The position numbers were made by a program, and so were the translations under genes. 13,726 bases of DNA, taken from Candidatus Bathyarchaeia archaeon. Lineage in GTDB: Archaea > Thermoproteota > Bathyarchaeia > Bathyarchaeales > Bathycorpusculaceae. The stretch is from assembly GCA_049512935.1 (NCBI GenBank), contig JBEKWR010000033.1:1-13726 (forward strand). The letters are read 5' to 3'. Below are positions 7,544 to 13,726 of this stretch, in pieces. The notes under the pieces are model-generated. The model was not told where the DNA came from, searched no databases, and saw nothing but the letters and a program-made list of their open reading frames with translations. The first letter of the stretch is position 1. The number at the start of each line of letters is the position of its first letter.

Positions 7544-7873
7544 TTAGTCGGTTTTTTCTTCGGTTGCTGGCTCGGCAGCAGAGGCTTTAGCCGCTTCCTT
7601 TGTCACTTCTTCCACGGGCAAACCTTTAGCTGCACGTTTCGCCACGGCTCCAAGTTTTGTCGCCGGGGTGTAGGCTCCGCCTGCGAAGGTGAAGTTGCAT
7701 TTACCGCATTTCCAGATGCCGACGCTTTCACGATGCACCCGCACGAAGCCGCAGTTTGGGCATTTGTGCGGTCGCTTAAGTTCAGTGACGACTTTGACGT
7801 AGCGTTTCCTAACTGTGGCACCGTAACGTGTTCCTAAACCCCTTGTTGGACCGACCTTCTTCGTTTTCGGCAC
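7544..7873 (-). CDS. rpl37ae: 50S ribosomal protein L37Ae (eL43)
   Basis: TKKVGPTRGLGTRYGATVRK, zinc finger CPNC...GIWKCGKC, FAGGAYTP. Start reassigned to GTG 7873 behind GGTGA (7879-7883). Confidence 0.96.
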   Translation of the reverse strand: MPKTKKVGPTRGLGTRYGATVRKRYVKVVTELKRPHKCPNCGFVRVHRESVGIWKCGKCNFTFAGGAYTPATKLGAVAKRAAKGLPVEEVTKEAAKASAAEPATEEKTD

Positions 7874-7878
7874 TTTTT

Positions 7879-8670
7879 TCACCAATCAAGCTTCTTGCGT
7901 AATTCGACTGCTTTCTCCTGAGCAATCTTTAATGCTTCTAAAATCTGTTGCGGTGTAAAGTAGCCTGAGCCGCCCTTCTGGCAGGCACATATTTTGCCTT
8001 CGTCGTTGATCGCCAAAGTTATCCGGGAGTCCATAACCTTTTCTTCTTCAAGCCATGGGTCAACAATCAAGACGTTGTTTATCTTGCCGATGGTTACGGT
8101 TATGGGGTGGCTTTTCATAGGCAGCGGAGTGTATCCCTGCTTCATTTTTACTTCGCCGTCTTTGATTTCATAGTTCGGCATCTTCGTGTTCAGTAGTGCA
8201 GCCATAGCAGCTAATGCGGCGCAGTCAATCAGGTTCCCGTCGTGGTTCAGCACGTAAACGTCAACGAAGACAATGAACACTTTCTTTCCTGGCTCGATGC
8301 AAAGTTTCTCGGTGTCGATAGCATGTGATTCACGGATGCCTCGGTCAACAACTCTTGCAAGCTCAATAGAGTTTTCGTCTGGTGGTCCCGGCTCAAAGTT
8401 CGGTGAAGCCAACGGGACAAGTTCAGCGTTAACCGTCATTACCCCTTCGTTAGGCGTATCGGTGAACGGCTCGCCAATTTCCACTTTTACGCCGGCAAGA
8501 ACCTCGGATTTGCCAAGCAGGCACCTTGCGGATCCTTCGGCGCGTTCGATTAAACCTTGCTCAATCTTGATTTCTCTTGTGTCACGTAAGCCTCGTTCGT
8601 CTAGGCGTTTTCCTTTTTCGAGCAGACCTTCAATCTGCTTTAGTCTAACTTTAGTTATTAATGATGACAT
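7879..8670 (-). CDS. rrp42: Exosome complex subunit Rrp42 (RNase PH-like)
   Basis: GKRLDER, AEGSA, PFTDTPNEG, FEPGPPDENSIELARVVDRGIRES, VLNHDGNLID, QKGG; operon context. Confidence 0.96.
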   Translation of the reverse strand: MSSLITKVRLKQIEGLLEKGKRLDERGLRDTREIKIEQGLIERAEGSARCLLGKSEVLAGVKVEIGEPFTDTPNEGVMTVNAELVPLASPNFEPGPPDENSIELARVVDRGIRESHAIDTEKLCIEPGKKVFIVFVDVYVLNHDGNLIDCAALAAMAALLNTKMPNYEIKDGEVKMKQGYTPLPMKSHPITVTIGKINNVLIVDPWLEEEKVMDSRITLAINDEGKICACQKGGSGYFTPQQILEALKIAQEKAVELRKKLDW

Positions 8671-9407
8671 TACTCTTCTCCAGCCTCCTTAACAACCATA
8701 TACTTCGTTTTTAACGCTTCCTTCTGCATCTCATAGATCTTTTTGCATCCATCAATCGCCATGTTCATGGCTTTTTCAAATTCTTCCGTTGTCAGAATGC
8801 CATCCATCTGAAGCAATGTAACCGCGTTTAAGCTGGGCATGTAAGCTACGGGAACATCAGCGGCGCCTAGCTTGTCTTCAGCATCGTAGAGGTCTAAGAC
8901 AACTGTGTCATCAACCTTTCCAGCCGCGCACGCAACAACCAAGTCACGCATCGGAACGCCAGCGTCTGCAATTGCTAAGGCGGCAGCAGTGATGCTTGCA
9001 CATCGGGTTCCTCCGTCAGCCTGCAGGACTTCAACGAAAACGTCAACGCCTGTCCGCGGATAAAGCTCCAAGAACAAGGCTGGCTCCAAAGATTCTCTTA
9101 TGACTTTAGACAGCTCAACTTCTCTTCTTGAAGGCGCGGGTGATTTGCGTTCCTGCACCGAAAAGGGAGCCATGTGATAGCGGCAGCGCAGAACCATGCG
9201 GTCTGGCATAGCCAAGTGTTTAGGATGCATTTCTCTTGGGCCAAAAGCCGCGGCTAAAATCTTGTTTTTGCCATGTTCAATGTAGGCTGACCCATCAGCG
9301 TTCGATAAGACGCCGACTTGAAGCTTTAACGGTCGAAGCTCATCTGCTTTTCTACCATCCAACCTTACGCCTTTTTTATCAATCAGTTTTTCAGGTTTTT
9401 CATTCAT
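8670..9407 (-). CDS. rrp41: Exosome complex exonuclease Rrp41
   Basis: [58 protein letters not shown]. Start at ATG 9407 behind GGAGG, overlapping the rrp4 stop. Confidence 0.97.
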
Positions 9408-10122
9408 TCTTGTTTTCCTCCACTTTTTCTTCAACTTTACCTTTACGTTCTTTAAGCAACTGTGTTATGCGATCTGTAAGACCGCTCGTGTGGGACTCTT
9501 GCTCAATCTTTCGGATCGCATCTATTGCGAGTTCCTCATCCTCAGGAGCTTTTCCAGTCACCAAGATGACACCGTTGAGCCCCAGAATAATTTGGCAACC
9601 CGTCTCCTGTTTAATCATGGAAATCATTGAGCCTTTTCTACCGATTACCCGAGGAATCTTCGTTGGTGTCACGTGAAGAATCTGTCCTCGAGTTATCTTT
9701 CCCAGCCCTGGCTCTCCAACGGTGAGCTGTGGGTCGTGGGCTCTGTCGTATGAGGCGATTTTTGCAACAATCAAGTCGCCAGCGTTTAGAACCGCGGATA
9801 ACTCGTCGTTTTGAGGCTTGAAAGGCCTGCTTAAAACGTCTGAGGCACGCAAGAGTGCTGTGTAGGGTGATTTAATGTCAATCGTCCAGCCGTTAAATCC
9901 TACTTCCACGACTGTCCCTATCACAATATCTCCCATTTTAGGCACATAAAAAGCCCTAAGTGCGACAACGTTCACTTTTTTATTGTCGGTATCCACAAGT
10001 CCGATTCTAGAGGCGAAAATCTTGTTCTGCTCCATATACGTGTTTTCGCCAGGCAAATATTCGCCCTCAGCAAGCATTTCTCCTGGCGTCACGAGCTGTT
10101 TTTTTTCAAAGAATATTGGCAT
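9400..10122 (-). CDS. rrp4: Exosome complex RNA-binding protein Rrp4 (S1 + KH)
   Basis: [16 protein letters not shown] (S1), [13 protein letters not shown] (KH), [10 protein letters not shown]. Start at ATG 10122 behind GGTGA (10131-10135). Confidence 0.96.
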
Positions 10123-10152
10123 AAAATCTTTCACCATCCATTTTAGATTTTT

Positions 10153-10842
10153 TTACGAGATTATTTTTGCTTCTCCACTTCCTTTTGTTACGTCGCCAAG
10201 TTTGTTCAGCAACGAGGCGTAGGATCCAGCGGGCAGTTCTAGCTCGCCATACCATGAGCCGTCTCCACGCCATTCTTCCCGTTTTATTGTTCCTAAGGTT
10301 TTAACCGACCCGTAGGCTCTTGCGGCGTACTGGGAAGGTATCTTCACGGCGACTGTGACTTGCTCTACTTTTAGGGGCAAGATCGGTCGCAAGAGTTTAA
10401 CTATGTCCCTTGCTTGTTCCTCAACTGGCTTGTACGGGTCAATCGGGTAACGGATCTGCTCCATCGCGTTCTCGATGCGCATTGGAGGATGAGGCAGGTT
10501 CGTTTTTGGGTCAACTGCTTGTCTCGCGATGTAATCGATTATTTGTCTTCTTTTGTCCTCAACCATTTTGCGTCTCTGTTCGGTGGTTAGCTGAAGCGTG
10601 CCTTTCTTGAGTATGACATCAGCGATTTTCAGCGCGTCGATGGTTCCGAAGGCTTTGCGCATTGCTTCCTCGGAAACTTTGGTTCCCTTGTTCGCGTCGG
10701 AAAATATCATTTCAGCGGCTAAGACATCGGTGATTCCAGCGATTTTCCCGTTGCGGTAATCCAGTGCTTTTTGCGGCTTAACTAGGACTTCAAAATGTTC
10801 GTTTTCTTTTGTTAAGCGTGCAACGGTGAACTTTTCACTCAT
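10153..10842 (-). CDS. Ribosome maturation factor SBDS/Sdo1 homolog
   Basis: HFEVLV, IFSDANKG, ILKKGTLQLTTEQRR, VDPKTNLPHPPMRIENAM, EEWRGDGSW; canonical position between psmA and rrp4. Start ATG 10842 or GTG 10845. Confidence 0.96.
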   Translation of the reverse strand: MSEKFTVARLTKENEHFEVLVKPQKALDYRNGKIAGITDVLAAEMIFSDANKGTKVSEEAMRKAFGTIDALKIADVILKKGTLQLTTEQRRKMVEDKRRQIIDYIARQAVDPKTNLPHPPMRIENAMEQIRYPIDPYKPVEEQARDIVKLLRPILPLKVEQVTVAVKIPSQYAARAYGSVKTLGTIKREEWRGDGSWYGELELPAGSYASLLNKLGDVTKGSGEAKIIS

Positions 10843-10849
10843 CACTTTG

Positions 10850-11578
10850 TCACTTGCTTGAACCCAGCTCTTTGATGTAACCTTCCACTTTGTCGTCGCC
10901 CAGCATTTCCATCTTCTTTGTTGTTAGGGGTATGACCGCTATCTTTATTCTCGCAGGCAGCTGCCGTGCTTCTAGAGCTTTGACTAAGCATTTTACCGCC
11001 AGTCTGACGCCTTGCTCGAGTGTTAGGTCTTCTTTGTACTCTTCTTTGAGGATTGCCTGGACTGTTTCTCTTCCTGCGCCGAGCGCGGTTGCTTTGTATC
11101 CTCGGTAGGTTCCGCTTGGGTGTGTTCCGAAAACGCGTGTTCCTGTTTTGTCGACTCCGCCGAAGATTATGGAGACTCCGAAGGGTCTGACTCCTGCGTG
11201 CTGTGTATACATTTGTTGGATGTCGCATATGCGTTTTGTGACGACTTCTACGTCTATGGGTTCGTCGTAAGTTAGTTTGTTGCTTTGAGCGTAAATTCTT
11301 GCTTGATCGATGAGTATTCTGGCGTCTGAGCTTAAACCGACGATCGCGGCGCCTATGTGGTCGTCTACTCTGAAGATTTTCCAGGAGTAGCCTGCTTCTT
11401 CGAGGATTTCGATGTTTTCTTCTGAGCCGAGGACTAAGCCTTCCGGGGTTTGGATTCCAAGTATGGTGGCTCCGCGGTTTACTAGTTCCATTGCGTATTC
11501 GACTTGGAAGAGTCGTCCGTCGGGTGAGAAAACGGTTATTGCACGGTCGTATGCTCCTGGTGCTGCAAACACTGACAT
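10850..11578 (-). CDS. psmA: Proteasome subunit alpha
   Basis: YDRAITVFSPDGRLFQVEYA, GLSSDARILID, YTQHAGVRPFGVS, PSG; RBS GAGGT at 11585-11589. Confidence 0.98.
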   Translation of the reverse strand: MSVFAAPGAYDRAITVFSPDGRLFQVEYAMELVNRGATILGIQTPEGLVLGSEENIEILEEAGYSWKIFRVDDHIGAAIVGLSSDARILIDQARIYAQSNKLTYDEPIDVEVVTKRICDIQQMYTQHAGVRPFGVSIIFGGVDKTGTRVFGTHPSGTYRGYKATALGAGRETVQAILKEEYKEDLTLEQGVRLAVKCLVKALEARQLPARIKIAVIPLTTKKMEMLGDDKVEGYIKELGSSK

Positions 11579-11616
11579 AACTTAACCTCACTTTACACTA
11601 TTCGCTATTTCACAGA

Positions 11617-11647
11617 TTCATATAAAGACCACACTAAAAACCTTTCC
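11617..11647 (-). promoter_or_regulatory. Promoter of the psmA-exosome operon
   Basis: Minus strand reads GGAAAGG-TTTTTA (BRE/TATA-like) and TTTATAT, 40-70 nt upstream of the psmA ATG. Confidence 0.5.
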
Positions 11648-11706
11648 TAGCCAAAACCCATTCCGCTGAAATTTTTTGGCGGGGCTTGTTTGGTTTTAAT
11701 TTTTTT

Positions 11707-11977
11707 GTTGCGACTTTTGCTAAGGGAAAGTTGCGACTTTCCGCCTTGGCAGTTTGCGTTTCATGTTGCTTTTACGGTTTAGAGCTTGAAAGCGTTTGAA
11801 CGTTGCGACTTTGGGATGGGCGGGTTGCGACTTTCAATGTTGACCCCATGTTGAAGGCATTGTCAGTTATTGTCGGTTATGGGCGGGTTTTTGGGCGGCT
11901 GGTTCGGTTTTGCATGGGTTTCGGTTTTTCAGCTTGGGGCTAAAGGTTTCTGCGGGTTGCGACTTTTGGGATGGGCG
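11707..11977 (+). repeat. Five direct copies of GTTGCGACTTT in a G/T-skewed intergenic region
   Basis: Exact copies at 11707-11717, 11730-11740, 11802-11812, 11824-11834 and 11956-11966. Copies 3 and 5 extend into (T)GGGATGGGCG; copies 4 and 5 are preceded by GCGG. Confidence 0.9.
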
Positions 11978-12039
11978 CTGGCTCGGCAGTTTTTCAGAAG
12001 CTGGCGGGTTCTCCCGGGATCCTTTGCAGTAACTTTGGC

Positions 12040-12103
12040 TTTTATACTAGACTGAACCATTAACTTTATCTATTACTTTGTAAAATAAAGTAATTTGCAA
12101 AGT
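12040..12103 (+). promoter_or_regulatory. Promoter and operator palindromes upstream of the wHTH-antitoxin-MazF operon
   Basis: TTTTATA near 12040-12046 and TTTATC at 12065-12070. Perfect inverted repeat ATTACTTT (12072-12079)/AAAGTAAT (12087-12094), overlapped by ACTTTGTAAA (12075-12084)/TTTGCAAAGT (12094-12103). Confidence 0.6.
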
Positions 12104-12128
12104 GTATGGAGTTCTGGGGAGAAAAAAT

Positions 12129-12488
12129 TTGAACGATAATGTTTACCTCTTGTTAGATGCTTCTGAAAGGTTGAACACCCGCACAGTATCTTTGACTAGG
12201 TGTCTTATTTTGGCTTTATTGTCGTATTTTGTGGATGGCGTTCAGTACAGAGAGTTGAAAACTGCTTTGAAGTTATCTGATGGAAAATTGATCGCAAATT
12301 TAAATCTGCTCAGAACAATGGGGTACATTCGAAAATCTGAAGCTGACGCGAATCAAAGAAAGATTGATGTCTATTCTCTTACGGAGAAAGGAAAAAATGA
12401 ATTGAGTAAGATTGTTGAGTGGATGAAGCTAATTCAAACAGTTGCAAGTGAGGGAGACGAAAAATGCCAAGTGATATTGACAAGGTAG
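12129..12488 (+). CDS. Winged helix-turn-helix transcriptional regulator (ArsR/HTH_34-like)
   Basis: RCLILALL...VQYRELKTALKLSDGKLIANLNLLRTMGYI...VYSLTEKGKNEL pattern. Probable TTG start at 12129 behind GGGGAGA (the track start 12102 is upstream). Confidence 0.85.
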   Translation: MNDNVYLLLDASERLNTRTVSLTRCLILALLSYFVDGVQYRELKTALKLSDGKLIANLNLLRTMGYIRKSEADANQRKIDVYSLTEKGKNELSKIVEWMKLIQTVASEGDEKCQVILTR

Positions 12489-12994
12489 TTGCATGCCTCA
12501 AGTTTTTAGATTTACGTCCAAGGATGAATGATTATCGATGGCGTTTTATGACCCAGAAAATCGGGTTCTTGGCAAAAGCTCTTGGAATGGATATTAGATA
12601 TGAGTTCACTATTTACGTGGCAGGACCTTATTCGAGAGATTTGAATTGTGACTATTACTCGTTCGAAGTTAAGGTTAAGATGGATGCGCTTGAAACTGAT
12701 TATCAGCTTTCGACTAATGACACTGCTGCTTTAACGAGAATCAAGAGTTGCCAAGGTTTGCTGGAAAATCAAAGCTTATTGGAAGCAACAGCTACTGCAG
12801 TTTATCTTATTCGTCAAAATCCGAATGAAGGCGACGACAGCTTGTTTATGAGCTTAAAGCGGCTAAAACCTCACCTGAGTGACTCTGACCGGGTTGTAGG
12901 CATTACCAAGGCCAAGGAACTGCTGTTTACACCTGATTATTTGACTGAAGACCTTAAGCGTGAAATGGATGAATGGGATAGACTTGAAAGCTGA
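12464..12994 (+). CDS. Panacea (DUF4065/SocA)/YwgA-like protein; putative antitoxin
   Basis: QKIGFL...YEFTIYVAGPYSRDL matches the QKxxY/F...F-x2-Y-x2-GPYS signature; LEATAT; acidic tail EMDEWDRLES. RBS GAGGGAG; lies directly upstream of mazF. Confidence 0.72.
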   Translation: MPSDIDKVVACLKFLDLRPRMNDYRWRFMTQKIGFLAKALGMDIRYEFTIYVAGPYSRDLNCDYYSFEVKVKMDALETDYQLSTNDTAALTRIKSCQGLLENQSLLEATATAVYLIRQNPNEGDDSLFMSLKRLKPHLSDSDRVVGITKAKELLFTPDYLTEDLKREMDEWDRLES

Positions 12995-13003
12995 TGAGAA
13001 CTG

Positions 13004-13351
13004 ATGCAGCGTGCAATTAAACCCATGGATATCTGGATGGTCTCTTTAACTGAGACTGTGGGTTCTGAGCAAATGGGGCAGCGACCAGCAATTGTTATTT
13101 CAGTGCATAATCAATCAAATACTTGCATGGTGGTGCCCTTGACTAAAAACTCGGCTGCTTCCAGATTCCCTTATTCTTTTACAATCGCATGCTCCATGGT
13201 CAATGGGCTGTCTGTTGATTCGGTCGCATTGATATTTCAAATGCGGTCTCTATCGATGACAGCAGGAAGGTTCCTTTCGAAAATGGGCAGCGTTGAAAGT
13301 GGTCATTTTGGGCGGATTAAGTCTTTAATAAAAGATTACCTGCAAGTCTAG
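13004..13351 (+). CDS. mazF: MazF/PemK-family endoribonuclease toxin
   Basis: DIWMVSL, GSEQMGQRPAIVIS (catalytic Arg), VVPLT (catalytic Thr), SVALIFQMRSLS, RF..KMG; 115 aa. Confidence 0.93.
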   Translation: MQRAIKPMDIWMVSLTETVGSEQMGQRPAIVISVHNQSNTCMVVPLTKNSAASRFPYSFTIACSMVNGLSVDSVALIFQMRSLSMTAGRFLSKMGSVESGHFGRIKSLIKDYLQV

Positions 13352-13446
13352 AAGGACCACAACCTGCCTCAAAACCCAGAAACAAAGAGCCGGGTGTCGC
13401 CTGCCTTTTAACACGAATTGTTGCCTCTTTTGATTTCTATGCATCT

Positions 13447-13473
13447 TTTCCAATGATATTTATAGCTTGGAAA
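13447..13473. promoter_or_regulatory. TATA box enclosed by an inverted repeat
   Basis: TTTCCAA (13447-13453) and TTGGAAA (13467-13473) flank TTTATA (13459-13464). Confidence 0.45.
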
Positions 13474-13487
13474 TCACCCACCCGCAA

Positions 13488-13556
13488 GATAGCCATGACT
13501 ACATGGCACGGGCACTAGCCCTGGCAGTAGCACGCAGCATGCAGAACGGTGCTTTT
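13488..13556 (+). ncRNA. Candidate small RNA with twin ACUA-loop hairpins
   Basis: GCCATG-ACTA-CATGGC (13492-13507), GGGC-ACTA-GCCC (13510-13521), and AGCAC/GTGCT stem (13529-13553) ending in a T4 run; lies about 25-30 nt downstream of a TATA box. Confidence 0.3.
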
Positions 13557-13593
13557 CAACATAGAAACAATACCCGCGCTTTCAACATGAAAC
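13551..13593 (-). repeat. Tandem TTTCAACAT(A)GAAACA repeat, an inverted counterpart of motifs at 11758-11855
   Basis: GCTTTTCAACATAGAAACA (13551-13569) and GCTTTCAACATGAAAC (13578-13593). CAACATGAAAC (13583-13593) is the exact reverse complement of GTTTCATGTTG (11758-11768). Confidence 0.6.
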
Positions 13594-13726
13594 AGTCTCT
13601 TTCTGCATTAAAAGTTGTTTTCTTAGTAGTTATAAGCAATTTCTTAAGGTCAATTGGCGGTTGTTCAGTTTTTCTAGCAATAAATGCTTGGACGAATGTT
13701 TCACTCAAGAAGCGACCGCATCATAA

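Follow-up and report, generated by a model that had tools for sequence, protein, structure and literature searches.

What holds a MazF-type ribonuclease in check where neither an AbrB- nor an RHH-type MazE antitoxin is encoded beside it? This question is raised by a locus of a Candidatus Bathyarchaeia archaeon (assembly GCA_049512935.1, contig JBEKWR010000033.1), which we analyzed in a window comprising the entire 13,726-bp contig, from a genome of 2.30 Mb in 49 contigs. Three genes follow each other on the forward strand of this window: the first (12129-12488, 119 aa) encodes a winged-helix DNA-binding protein of the Pfam family HTH_34, a putative autorepressor; the second (12464-12994, 176 aa), a putative antitoxin with a Panacea/DarG-C-like helical core at about residues 1-153; and the third (13004-13351, 115 aa), a predicted MazF/PemK-family endoribonuclease toxin (PemK_toxin). 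An earlier note on this DNA had described three tightly linked genes with a 25-bp overlap and a 9-bp gap and had found no AbrB- or RHH-type MazE, and the list of open reading frames (ORFs) agrees on both counts: the first two genes overlap at 12464-12488, the gap before mazF spans 12995-13003, the three module genes are the only + strand ORFs of at least 40 aa in 12102-13351, no such MazE is present among the ORFs of the window, and neither of the proteins encoded upstream of mazF matches the MazE_antitoxin or RHH models of Pfam. We propose, with a probability of about 0.7, that the locus is a mobile tripartite type II toxin-antitoxin (TA) operon in which the product of the second gene, hereafter the middle protein, is a Panacea-like antitoxin of MazF.

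Conservation and decay of the three genes

The predicted toxin matches positions 2-107 of the 109 in the Pfam profile PemK_toxin (PF02452; E 1.8e-17, 63.9 bits against a cut-off of 23.1), the PHROG family 'MazF-like growth inhibitor' (E 1.7e-17), and 23 solved MazF/PemK/Kid chains at E <= 0.001. R27, in the loop after strand 1, and T47, which we take to be the catalytic residues, are invariant in 15 sequences; in the alignment, their counterparts in the solved S. aureus MazF are the R of GvRP and the T of iTg, so that the active site, described as intact in the earlier note, appears to be preserved. PADLOC gives no match for MazF and no system-level hit for the module, only weak single-protein matches for the winged-helix and middle proteins. 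The same genome has one more gene of the PemK family (108 aa, 34.9 bits; L003:1272-1803, on G000:C10 in our numbering), which is preceded and overlapped by a 75-aa ORF in a conventional two-gene pair.

A scan of one genome per species for the trio recovered 24 related loci, 18 of them in Bathyarchaeia, three in Promethearchaeota, and one each in Thorarchaeota, Ferroplasma, and another archaeon; two metagenome-assembled genomes (MAGs) carry two copies of the module each. Of the 24 loci, 22 have the winged-helix gene immediately before the middle gene; L026 retains a remnant of it, and in L027 the sequence extends only 292 bp upstream. Downstream of the middle gene, 21 loci have mazF or what is left of it. 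A three-gene arrangement repeated in 24 loci of other genomes is far beyond what chance would give, and the earlier proposal of a conserved, TA-like three-gene module that co-occurs elsewhere across archaea holds up.

It is the toxin gene that decays. Across the 24 loci, mazF is intact in 14, broken in seven, and absent from three (L004, L026, and L022, where a TnpB/IS605 gene occupies its expected place). The broken copies are truncated (L005), frameshifted (L011, L014, L019, and L027), or interrupted by an in-frame stop (L016 and L017). The winged-helix and middle genes both remain open in nine of the ten loci with a broken or absent mazF, the tenth being L026, where both are degraded. Such toxin-first decay is the pattern predicted for a TA pair. 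In 14 loci where all three genes are intact (a set that omits L012, whose winged-helix gene is cut by a contig end), the three proteins show correlated pairwise distances (r 0.91-0.94), and in a Mantel test the value observed for the middle protein and MazF is reached in none of 2000 permutations; as judged from the sequences, this co-divergence points to inheritance as a unit and to nothing more.

The middle protein, its tail, and the operator

The database copy of the middle protein is 148 aa long, 84% of the ORF. Given that homologues span the full 176 aa and that the N-terminus is conserved, we take the 176-aa reading to be the correct one, the database start probably being a call at an internal Met. 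The protein matches no Pfam family at E <= 1 and no PHROG. A word-indexed search returned 90 homologues, mostly of 172-177 aa and none with a precomputed Pfam domain, and an exhaustive search returned 303 cluster representatives at E <= 0.001; many of the homologues carry the JGI label 'uncharacterized protein YwgA', and among the YwgA papers listed, no title concerns the middle protein. The QK...GPYS motif that the earlier note had picked out is evident in an alignment of 21 homologues, where Q31, K32, G54, P55, and S57 are invariant and Y56 is nearly so.

The fold of this protein is best approached through an AlphaFold2 model built on the 21-sequence alignment (predicted local distance difference test, pLDDT, 87.3; predicted template modeling score, pTM, 0.82). 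The top two Foldseek matches of the model in the PDB are 7yk3_D and 7yk3_B (E 1.3e-2, probability 1.00, template modeling score, TM, 0.51), the chains of the M. tuberculosis DarTG complex that represent the C-terminal part of DarG. A Foldseek-independent search of 48,161 chains aligns 148 residues of 7yk3_D to residues 1-153 of the model, with a Z of 13.0, a root-mean-square deviation of 3.0, and an identity of 14%, the second-best match having a Z of 4.8; this large gap and the near-full coverage argue for the match of the predicted structure being real. Matches of the single sequence to DarG models fall on one and the same segment and are weak (NCBIfam, E 0.045; PADLOC, E 0.001), that to NF048014 (DarG) reaching 13 bits against a cut-off of 250 over profile positions 179-233 only.

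A relationship to Panacea emerges from comparison of profiles. With 12 archaeal ORFs that pass the PF13274 model, taken from 151 genomes of the same phylum, an 88-sequence profile of the middle family aligns in hhalign at 95.3% and E 2.2e-8 over 91 columns, and the same profile retrieves two PF13274-passing ORFs (G119:C192, E 5.0e-15; G141:C38, E 2.3e-10). Against the PDB, its best match is 7yk3_B (E 0.0047), which a PF13274-derived profile finds at rank 2 (E 0.008), both matches falling on the QK..F..GPYS segment. As a control, the model of a canonical archaeal PF13274 protein (78.9 bits; pLDDT 82.5) likewise has 7yk3_D as its top match, with a Z of 7.9 against 5.0 for the next, the sharing of the fold thus being judged via the common match to 7yk3_D and not by direct superposition of the two models. 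Leads from the ESM Atlas, a 'putative DUF4065' cluster (TM 0.72/0.82) and a Macro-bearing cluster (TM 0.68), are in line with this relationship. In the window's own genome, PF13274 finds no match anywhere, and the family profile has a weak second match, confined to the motif region (G000:C3:113171-113317; E 2.0e-4). According to a 2026 paper (PMC13621843), DUF4065 proteins share homology with the C-terminal domain of DarG, a helical inhibitor domain. Together, the fold match, the profile-profile comparison, and this published homology lead us to place the middle protein within the Panacea/DarG-C superfamily, where it represents a separate family that lacks a Pfam model and is not a member of PF13274. 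The earlier identification of a Panacea-like protein is hence upheld at the level of the superfamily, by the profile-profile comparison and by the fold predicted for 12464-12994, but not as membership defined by the PF13274 model.

Beyond the DarG-C-aligned core (model residues 1-153), the middle protein carries an acidic C-terminal helix (residues 155-176; 12926-12991, + strand), in which E167 and W171 are invariant and D172 is nearly so among the 21 homologues. The tail includes eight acidic and three basic residues among 24, and the confidence of the model falls there, to a pLDDT of 56-72 over the last three ten-residue blocks. The C-terminus of E. coli MazE is also acidic and Trp-bearing, and the tail of the middle protein resembles it. 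All 11 of the long-class, MazF-linked members that were checked have the tail, with the Trp in 10 of them; the member that lacks the Trp is that of L019, whose mazF is frameshifted.

The tail sets these proteins apart from a larger family. Of 401 genomes of the phylum, 61 have matches to the 88-sequence profile, with as many as eight copies in a genome (G036 and G359); strong orthologues (E < 1e-50) occur, among these 401, in the window's genome and one congener only. We examined 28 further loci, one of which (L052) is a MazF-type module with the same figures as L014; the other 27 (L053-L079) encode short relatives of 147-214 aa that do not adjoin mazF, and the tail is absent from all 27, the match to the family model ending at or before position 151 of 174. 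The gene directly downstream on the same strand is PIN-like in five of these loci, HD-type with weak dGTPase-like matches in one, and of no known family in the rest, and an HTH_34 gene lies upstream in only one of the 27. Because the constant companion of toxin-like genes is the middle family, and the HTH_34 gene is mostly missing there, the genomic neighborhoods favor the middle protein over the winged-helix protein as the neutralizer; the short relatives, for their part, look like a partner-swapping antitoxin hub. Stand-alone Panacea domains can neutralize toxins directly, and in multidomain PanAs appended elements do so (NetFlax, PMC10440598); given this precedent and the restriction of the tail to the MazF-linked clade, we propose that the C-terminal tail may be a MazF-specific neutralizing element.

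The winged-helix protein matches HTH_34 (PF13601) at E 1.8e-13 and 50.9 bits against a cut-off of 27, and 22 columns are invariant in 22 sequences. The overlap of its gene with the middle gene is conserved too, measuring 25 bp in most of the Bathyarchaeial and 17 bp in the Asgard loci. An operator-like site (12063-12103, 26 bp upstream of the TTG start) consists of four half-sites at 12-bp spacing, ACTTT at 12063-12067 and 12075-12079 and AAAGT at 12087-12091 and 12099-12103, which make nested palindromes around an AT-rich, TATA-like stretch (12081-12089) within a longer inverted repeat (I1, arms 12057-12079 and 12087-12109). In an alignment of 15 promoters, namely, those of the window and 14 Bathyarchaeial loci (L004-L011, L014-L018, and L020), of 25 loci in all, the three half-sites at 12075-12103 are invariant in every sequence at a mean column identity of 40%; the fourth (12063-12067) is kept in the closer loci only. 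The pattern ACTTT-N7-AAAGT-N7-AAAGT occurs once in the 2.3-Mb genome. The first ORF was called from a GTG at 12102 to 12488. Its in-frame TTG at 12129 lines up with the starts of related genes, such as the ATG in L004, and the upstream GTG falls within the operator-like site. The winged-helix protein would bind this putative operator and occlude the TATA box.

A coherent, if conditional, scenario can be drawn from these observations. The winged-helix protein would bind the ACTTT/AAAGT half-sites, which overlap the TATA-like box, and would repress the operon; the three genes would be expressed from a single transcript, with coupled translation; and the 176-aa protein would bind MazF directly and block its RNA groove, most likely via the acidic, Trp-bearing C-terminal helix, the Panacea-like core acting as a platform or sensor. 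Once the antitoxin is no longer replenished, free MazF would cut RNA and arrest growth, an outcome that would stabilize the element and may limit infection. The sequencing runs that hold this stretch are recorded as peat and wetland metagenomes, and one metatranscriptome run yields two error-free 151-nt contigs, at 12428-12578, bridging the junction of the winged-helix and middle genes, and at 12586-12736. These contigs, a weak hint of transcription of the module, show presence only, and the parts of the module that they do not cover carry no meaning.

Genomic setting and rival explanations

The module stands back-to-back with, and 551 bp from the psmA start of, an intact array on the reverse strand (psmA, SBDS, Rrp4, Rrp41, Rrp42, and L37ae; 7544-11578) that includes two RNase PH subunits and that we take to be the archaeal exosome superoperon. 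The psmA operon was found in 11 of 12 congeners searched, with protein identities of 85-93%, and in none of these 11 does the module or the motif of a nearby repeat (described below) occur in the stretch upstream of psmA, of up to 1.5 kb (88 bp in L091). In all 11, the DNA homology with the window breaks off at 11649 (at 11648 in L083), and one congener, L082, matches the window again at 13474-13543. The module has a G+C content of 0.408 against 0.477 for the genome. The homology break and the low G+C content delimit an insertion of about 1.8 kb (approximately 11650-13470) that comprises a copy of the repeat and the module; the cassette thus looks like a strain-specific insertion, and its position beside proteasome and exosome genes looks accidental. 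In none of the 24 related loci is psmA, SBDS, Rrp4, or Rrp41 found near the module. Because the cassette is a low-G+C insertion missing from 11 congeners, the link to the proteasome and exosome on which the earlier note had speculated is unsupported, and we reject it; the module bears nothing on the biology of either complex.

The surroundings of the related loci vary and include TnpB/IS605, Cas6, a TIR effector, PLD, PD-(D/E)XK nucleases, HerA, terminase, and other TA genes, along with housekeeping genes. These variable flanks, the low G+C content, and the absence from congeners together indicate that the module is mobile. There is no tRNA gene in the window and, hence, no tRNA-linked integration site. 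Among viral contigs (IMG/VR), a search with the 21-sequence profile gave 76 pattern matches, none of them a relative.

Before turning to the alternatives, the observations that count against the operon being what we propose should be set out together. On the side of conservation, some of the mazF breaks, found in draft MAGs, could be assembly errors; the loci of related genomes are not independent, so that the correlations of protein distances are overstated; and the contigs of the RNA library could come from contaminating DNA. As for the fold, Foldseek gives no match in the PDB at E <= 0.001, and the second aligner cautions that a Z below about 13 can reflect an arrangement common among helical proteins. 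The PF13274 model matches neither the window protein (E <= 1) nor any of 45 distant relatives of the middle protein (E <= 0.1), and the sequence matches to 7yk3_B are marginal (E 0.005-0.008). The narrow 21-sequence profile reaches only 70.5% over 43 columns against the PF13274 proteins in hhalign and, against the PDB, finds no DarG at E <= 10, only HDHD2 at E 0.34. Longer, fused forms (winged-helix-middle or Macro-middle) are missing at E <= 0.001 among 1339 candidates, in what was a weak search. Finally, three of the five PIN matches near the short relatives lie under the Pfam cut-off, with two above it, and most of the genes neighboring the short class belong to no family.

The rival explanations differ chiefly in what they take the middle protein to do. 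The winged-helix protein could be the real antitoxin, uniting DNA binding with a short C-terminal toxin-binding tail, as classical antitoxins generally join DNA binding and neutralization, and leaving the 176-aa protein as an accessory, for instance a chaperone of the antitoxin or a sensor of the trigger. About 19 residues of the winged-helix protein extend beyond the HTH_34 match, its gene has the wide presence noted above (22 of 24 loci), and the NetFlax paper proposes that the role of Panacea can be accessory or sensory instead of neutralizing (PMC10440598). Nevertheless, we consider this unlikely, because relatives of the middle protein stand upstream of PIN-like, HD-type, and unknown small genes without an HTH_34 gene in 26 of 27 cases, because the tail of the winged-helix protein, for which the 25-bp overlap codes, is not the same in Bathyarchaeial as in Asgard loci, and because the conserved, clade-specific tail sits on the middle protein. 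Alternatively, the middle protein might act in the manner of SocA (type VI), handing MazF to a protease (such as the proteasome with PAN, or Lon) without inhibiting it alone. SocA, itself a Panacea-domain protein, is a proteolytic adaptor (PMC8832971), and the proximity of the module to psmA might then give the neighboring proteasome gene a meaning; but this adjacency is specific to the present genome, being seen in none of the 24 loci and none of the 11 congeners, with a dispersed repeat intervening. Moreover, the authors of the Panacea study judged the PanA results to be most consistent with direct neutralization (PMC8832971), and DarG-C, whose solved fold comes nearest, is described as binding and inhibiting its toxin (PMC13621843), so that an adaptor of this kind seems quite improbable.

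The remaining alternative, that the cassette is a domesticated, regulated RNase working with the adjacent exosome/proteasome superoperon in RNA or protein turnover, has only the back-to-back position beside psmA-SBDS-Rrp4-Rrp41-Rrp42-L37ae in its favor and is barely credible: the superoperon is present in 11 of 12 congeners and the module upstream of psmA in none of those 11, the G+C content of the module departs from that of the genome, and the distribution is patchy and multi-copy, with variable flanks and frequent decay of mazF. A mobile TA operon with a Panacea-like antitoxin thus remains our preferred reading. We also entertain, tentatively and with more doubt than confidence, a broader version of it, in which an archaeal Panacea/DarG-C branch would serve as a hub antitoxin for PIN-like, HD/dGTPase-like, and MazF toxins, the appended Trp helix neutralizing MazF and the core sensing a trigger, such as a virus, so that the whole would be a mobile abortive-infection cassette with a winged-helix repressor, shared by Bathyarchaeia and Asgard archaea.

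Two further features of the insertion and its surroundings deserve mention. Between the module and psmA (window 11690-11970) lies one copy of a repeat, about 190-230 bp long, that is dispersed in the genome, with five exact copies of an 11-base motif on one strand (11707, 11730, 11802, 11824, and 11956), where 0.43 are expected and none of 200 shuffles reaches five. Genome-wide, the exact motif occurs 89 times, against 8 for the control read backwards, in clusters with the same 23/72/22 spacing; blastn adds 31 matches to the repeat, which are 73-93% identical, are spread over 19 contigs, and in several cases sit at contig ends, and 23 aligned copies have a highly conserved core in common. The depth of metagenome contigs over the repeat is 147-217, against about 9.5 in the flanks; folding gives a z of -2.6 for the + strand and -1.0 for the - strand, and the repeat corresponds to no Rfam family. 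It may be an element akin to a miniature inverted-repeat transposable element or a family of small-RNA genes. Nothing in the window reaches the Rfam gathering score, the one hit being a chance-level long non-coding RNA match (E 0.19; 11580-13726). At the other side of the module, an 86-aa, open-ended ORF (13467-13724) has no PHROG match, and a 4527-nt contig of the DNA run X2 covers 11860-13726 without differences and continues for about 2.66 kb past the window end; because it runs on, the contig end at 13726 is an assembly limit and not the end of a replicon.

Relation to known systems and significance

How does this module compare with TA systems already described? In PanA-PanT (Kurata et al. 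2022, PMC8832971; Ernits et al. 2023, PMC10440598), as here, a helical antitoxin gene lies directly upstream of the toxin gene; the middle protein bears the QK..L/F..GP(Y/F)S signature and is a profile-profile homologue of PanA. PanA antitoxins pair and form complexes with PemK/MazF-like toxins (Kurata et al. 2022, PMC8832971), so that PanT partners of this type are known, and the middle family likewise pairs with different toxin types. The same paper places Panacea antitoxins in three archaeal phyla, reports an HTH fused to PanA often (343 cases), and mentions third genes of PanAT systems, each in a small fraction of genomes only. Unlike PanA, the middle protein misses the PF13274 model and belongs to its own family; in contrast to the fused HTH, a separate, overlapping winged-helix gene of the HTH_34 family is constant across the clade and has its own conserved operator; and, unlike PanA-PanT, the module features an acidic Trp tail of its own and hosts among Bathyarchaeia and Asgard archaea.

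The C-terminal domain of DarG (7yk3), described as helical, toxin-binding, and toxin-inhibiting (PMC13621843), is the best and only clear structural match of the middle protein, which, however, unlike DarG, has no N-terminal macrodomain (no Macro hit in Pfam), and the partner is of the MazF RNase family (PemK_toxin) rather than a DarT ADP-ribosyltransferase. With MazEF, PemIK, and Kid-Kis, the module shares a PemK_toxin-family toxin with conserved Arg and Thr and an antitoxin gene upstream, but no MazE of the AbrB/SpoVT or RHH type is present, and neutralization and DNA binding are apparently split between two proteins. The order regulator, antitoxin, toxin is that of the paaR-paaA-parE operon (cited in PMC8832971), whereas all three families are unrelated here, the host is archaeal, and the operator lies over a TATA-like box. 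In the literature searched, no paper among those listed points to the module by its title or the start of its abstract, although loci of this kind may already appear in the datasets of PMC8832971 and PMC10440598; PMC6393860 names PemK in a legend only.

The locus reveals a divergent archaeal family that the models of Pfam and PADLOC currently miss. Panacea, a hyperpromiscuous antitoxin domain, is known mostly from bacteria and phages, and the archaeal family described here likewise appears to change its toxin partners. Within it, the MazF-linked clade offers a clean case for the study of how a Panacea-like core and an appended tail divide the task of neutralization, and the invariant operator provides a simple archaeal model of TA autoregulation. 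Furthermore, the module could be used as a marker of mobile and defense islands in the genomes of uncultured Bathyarchaeia and Asgard archaea.

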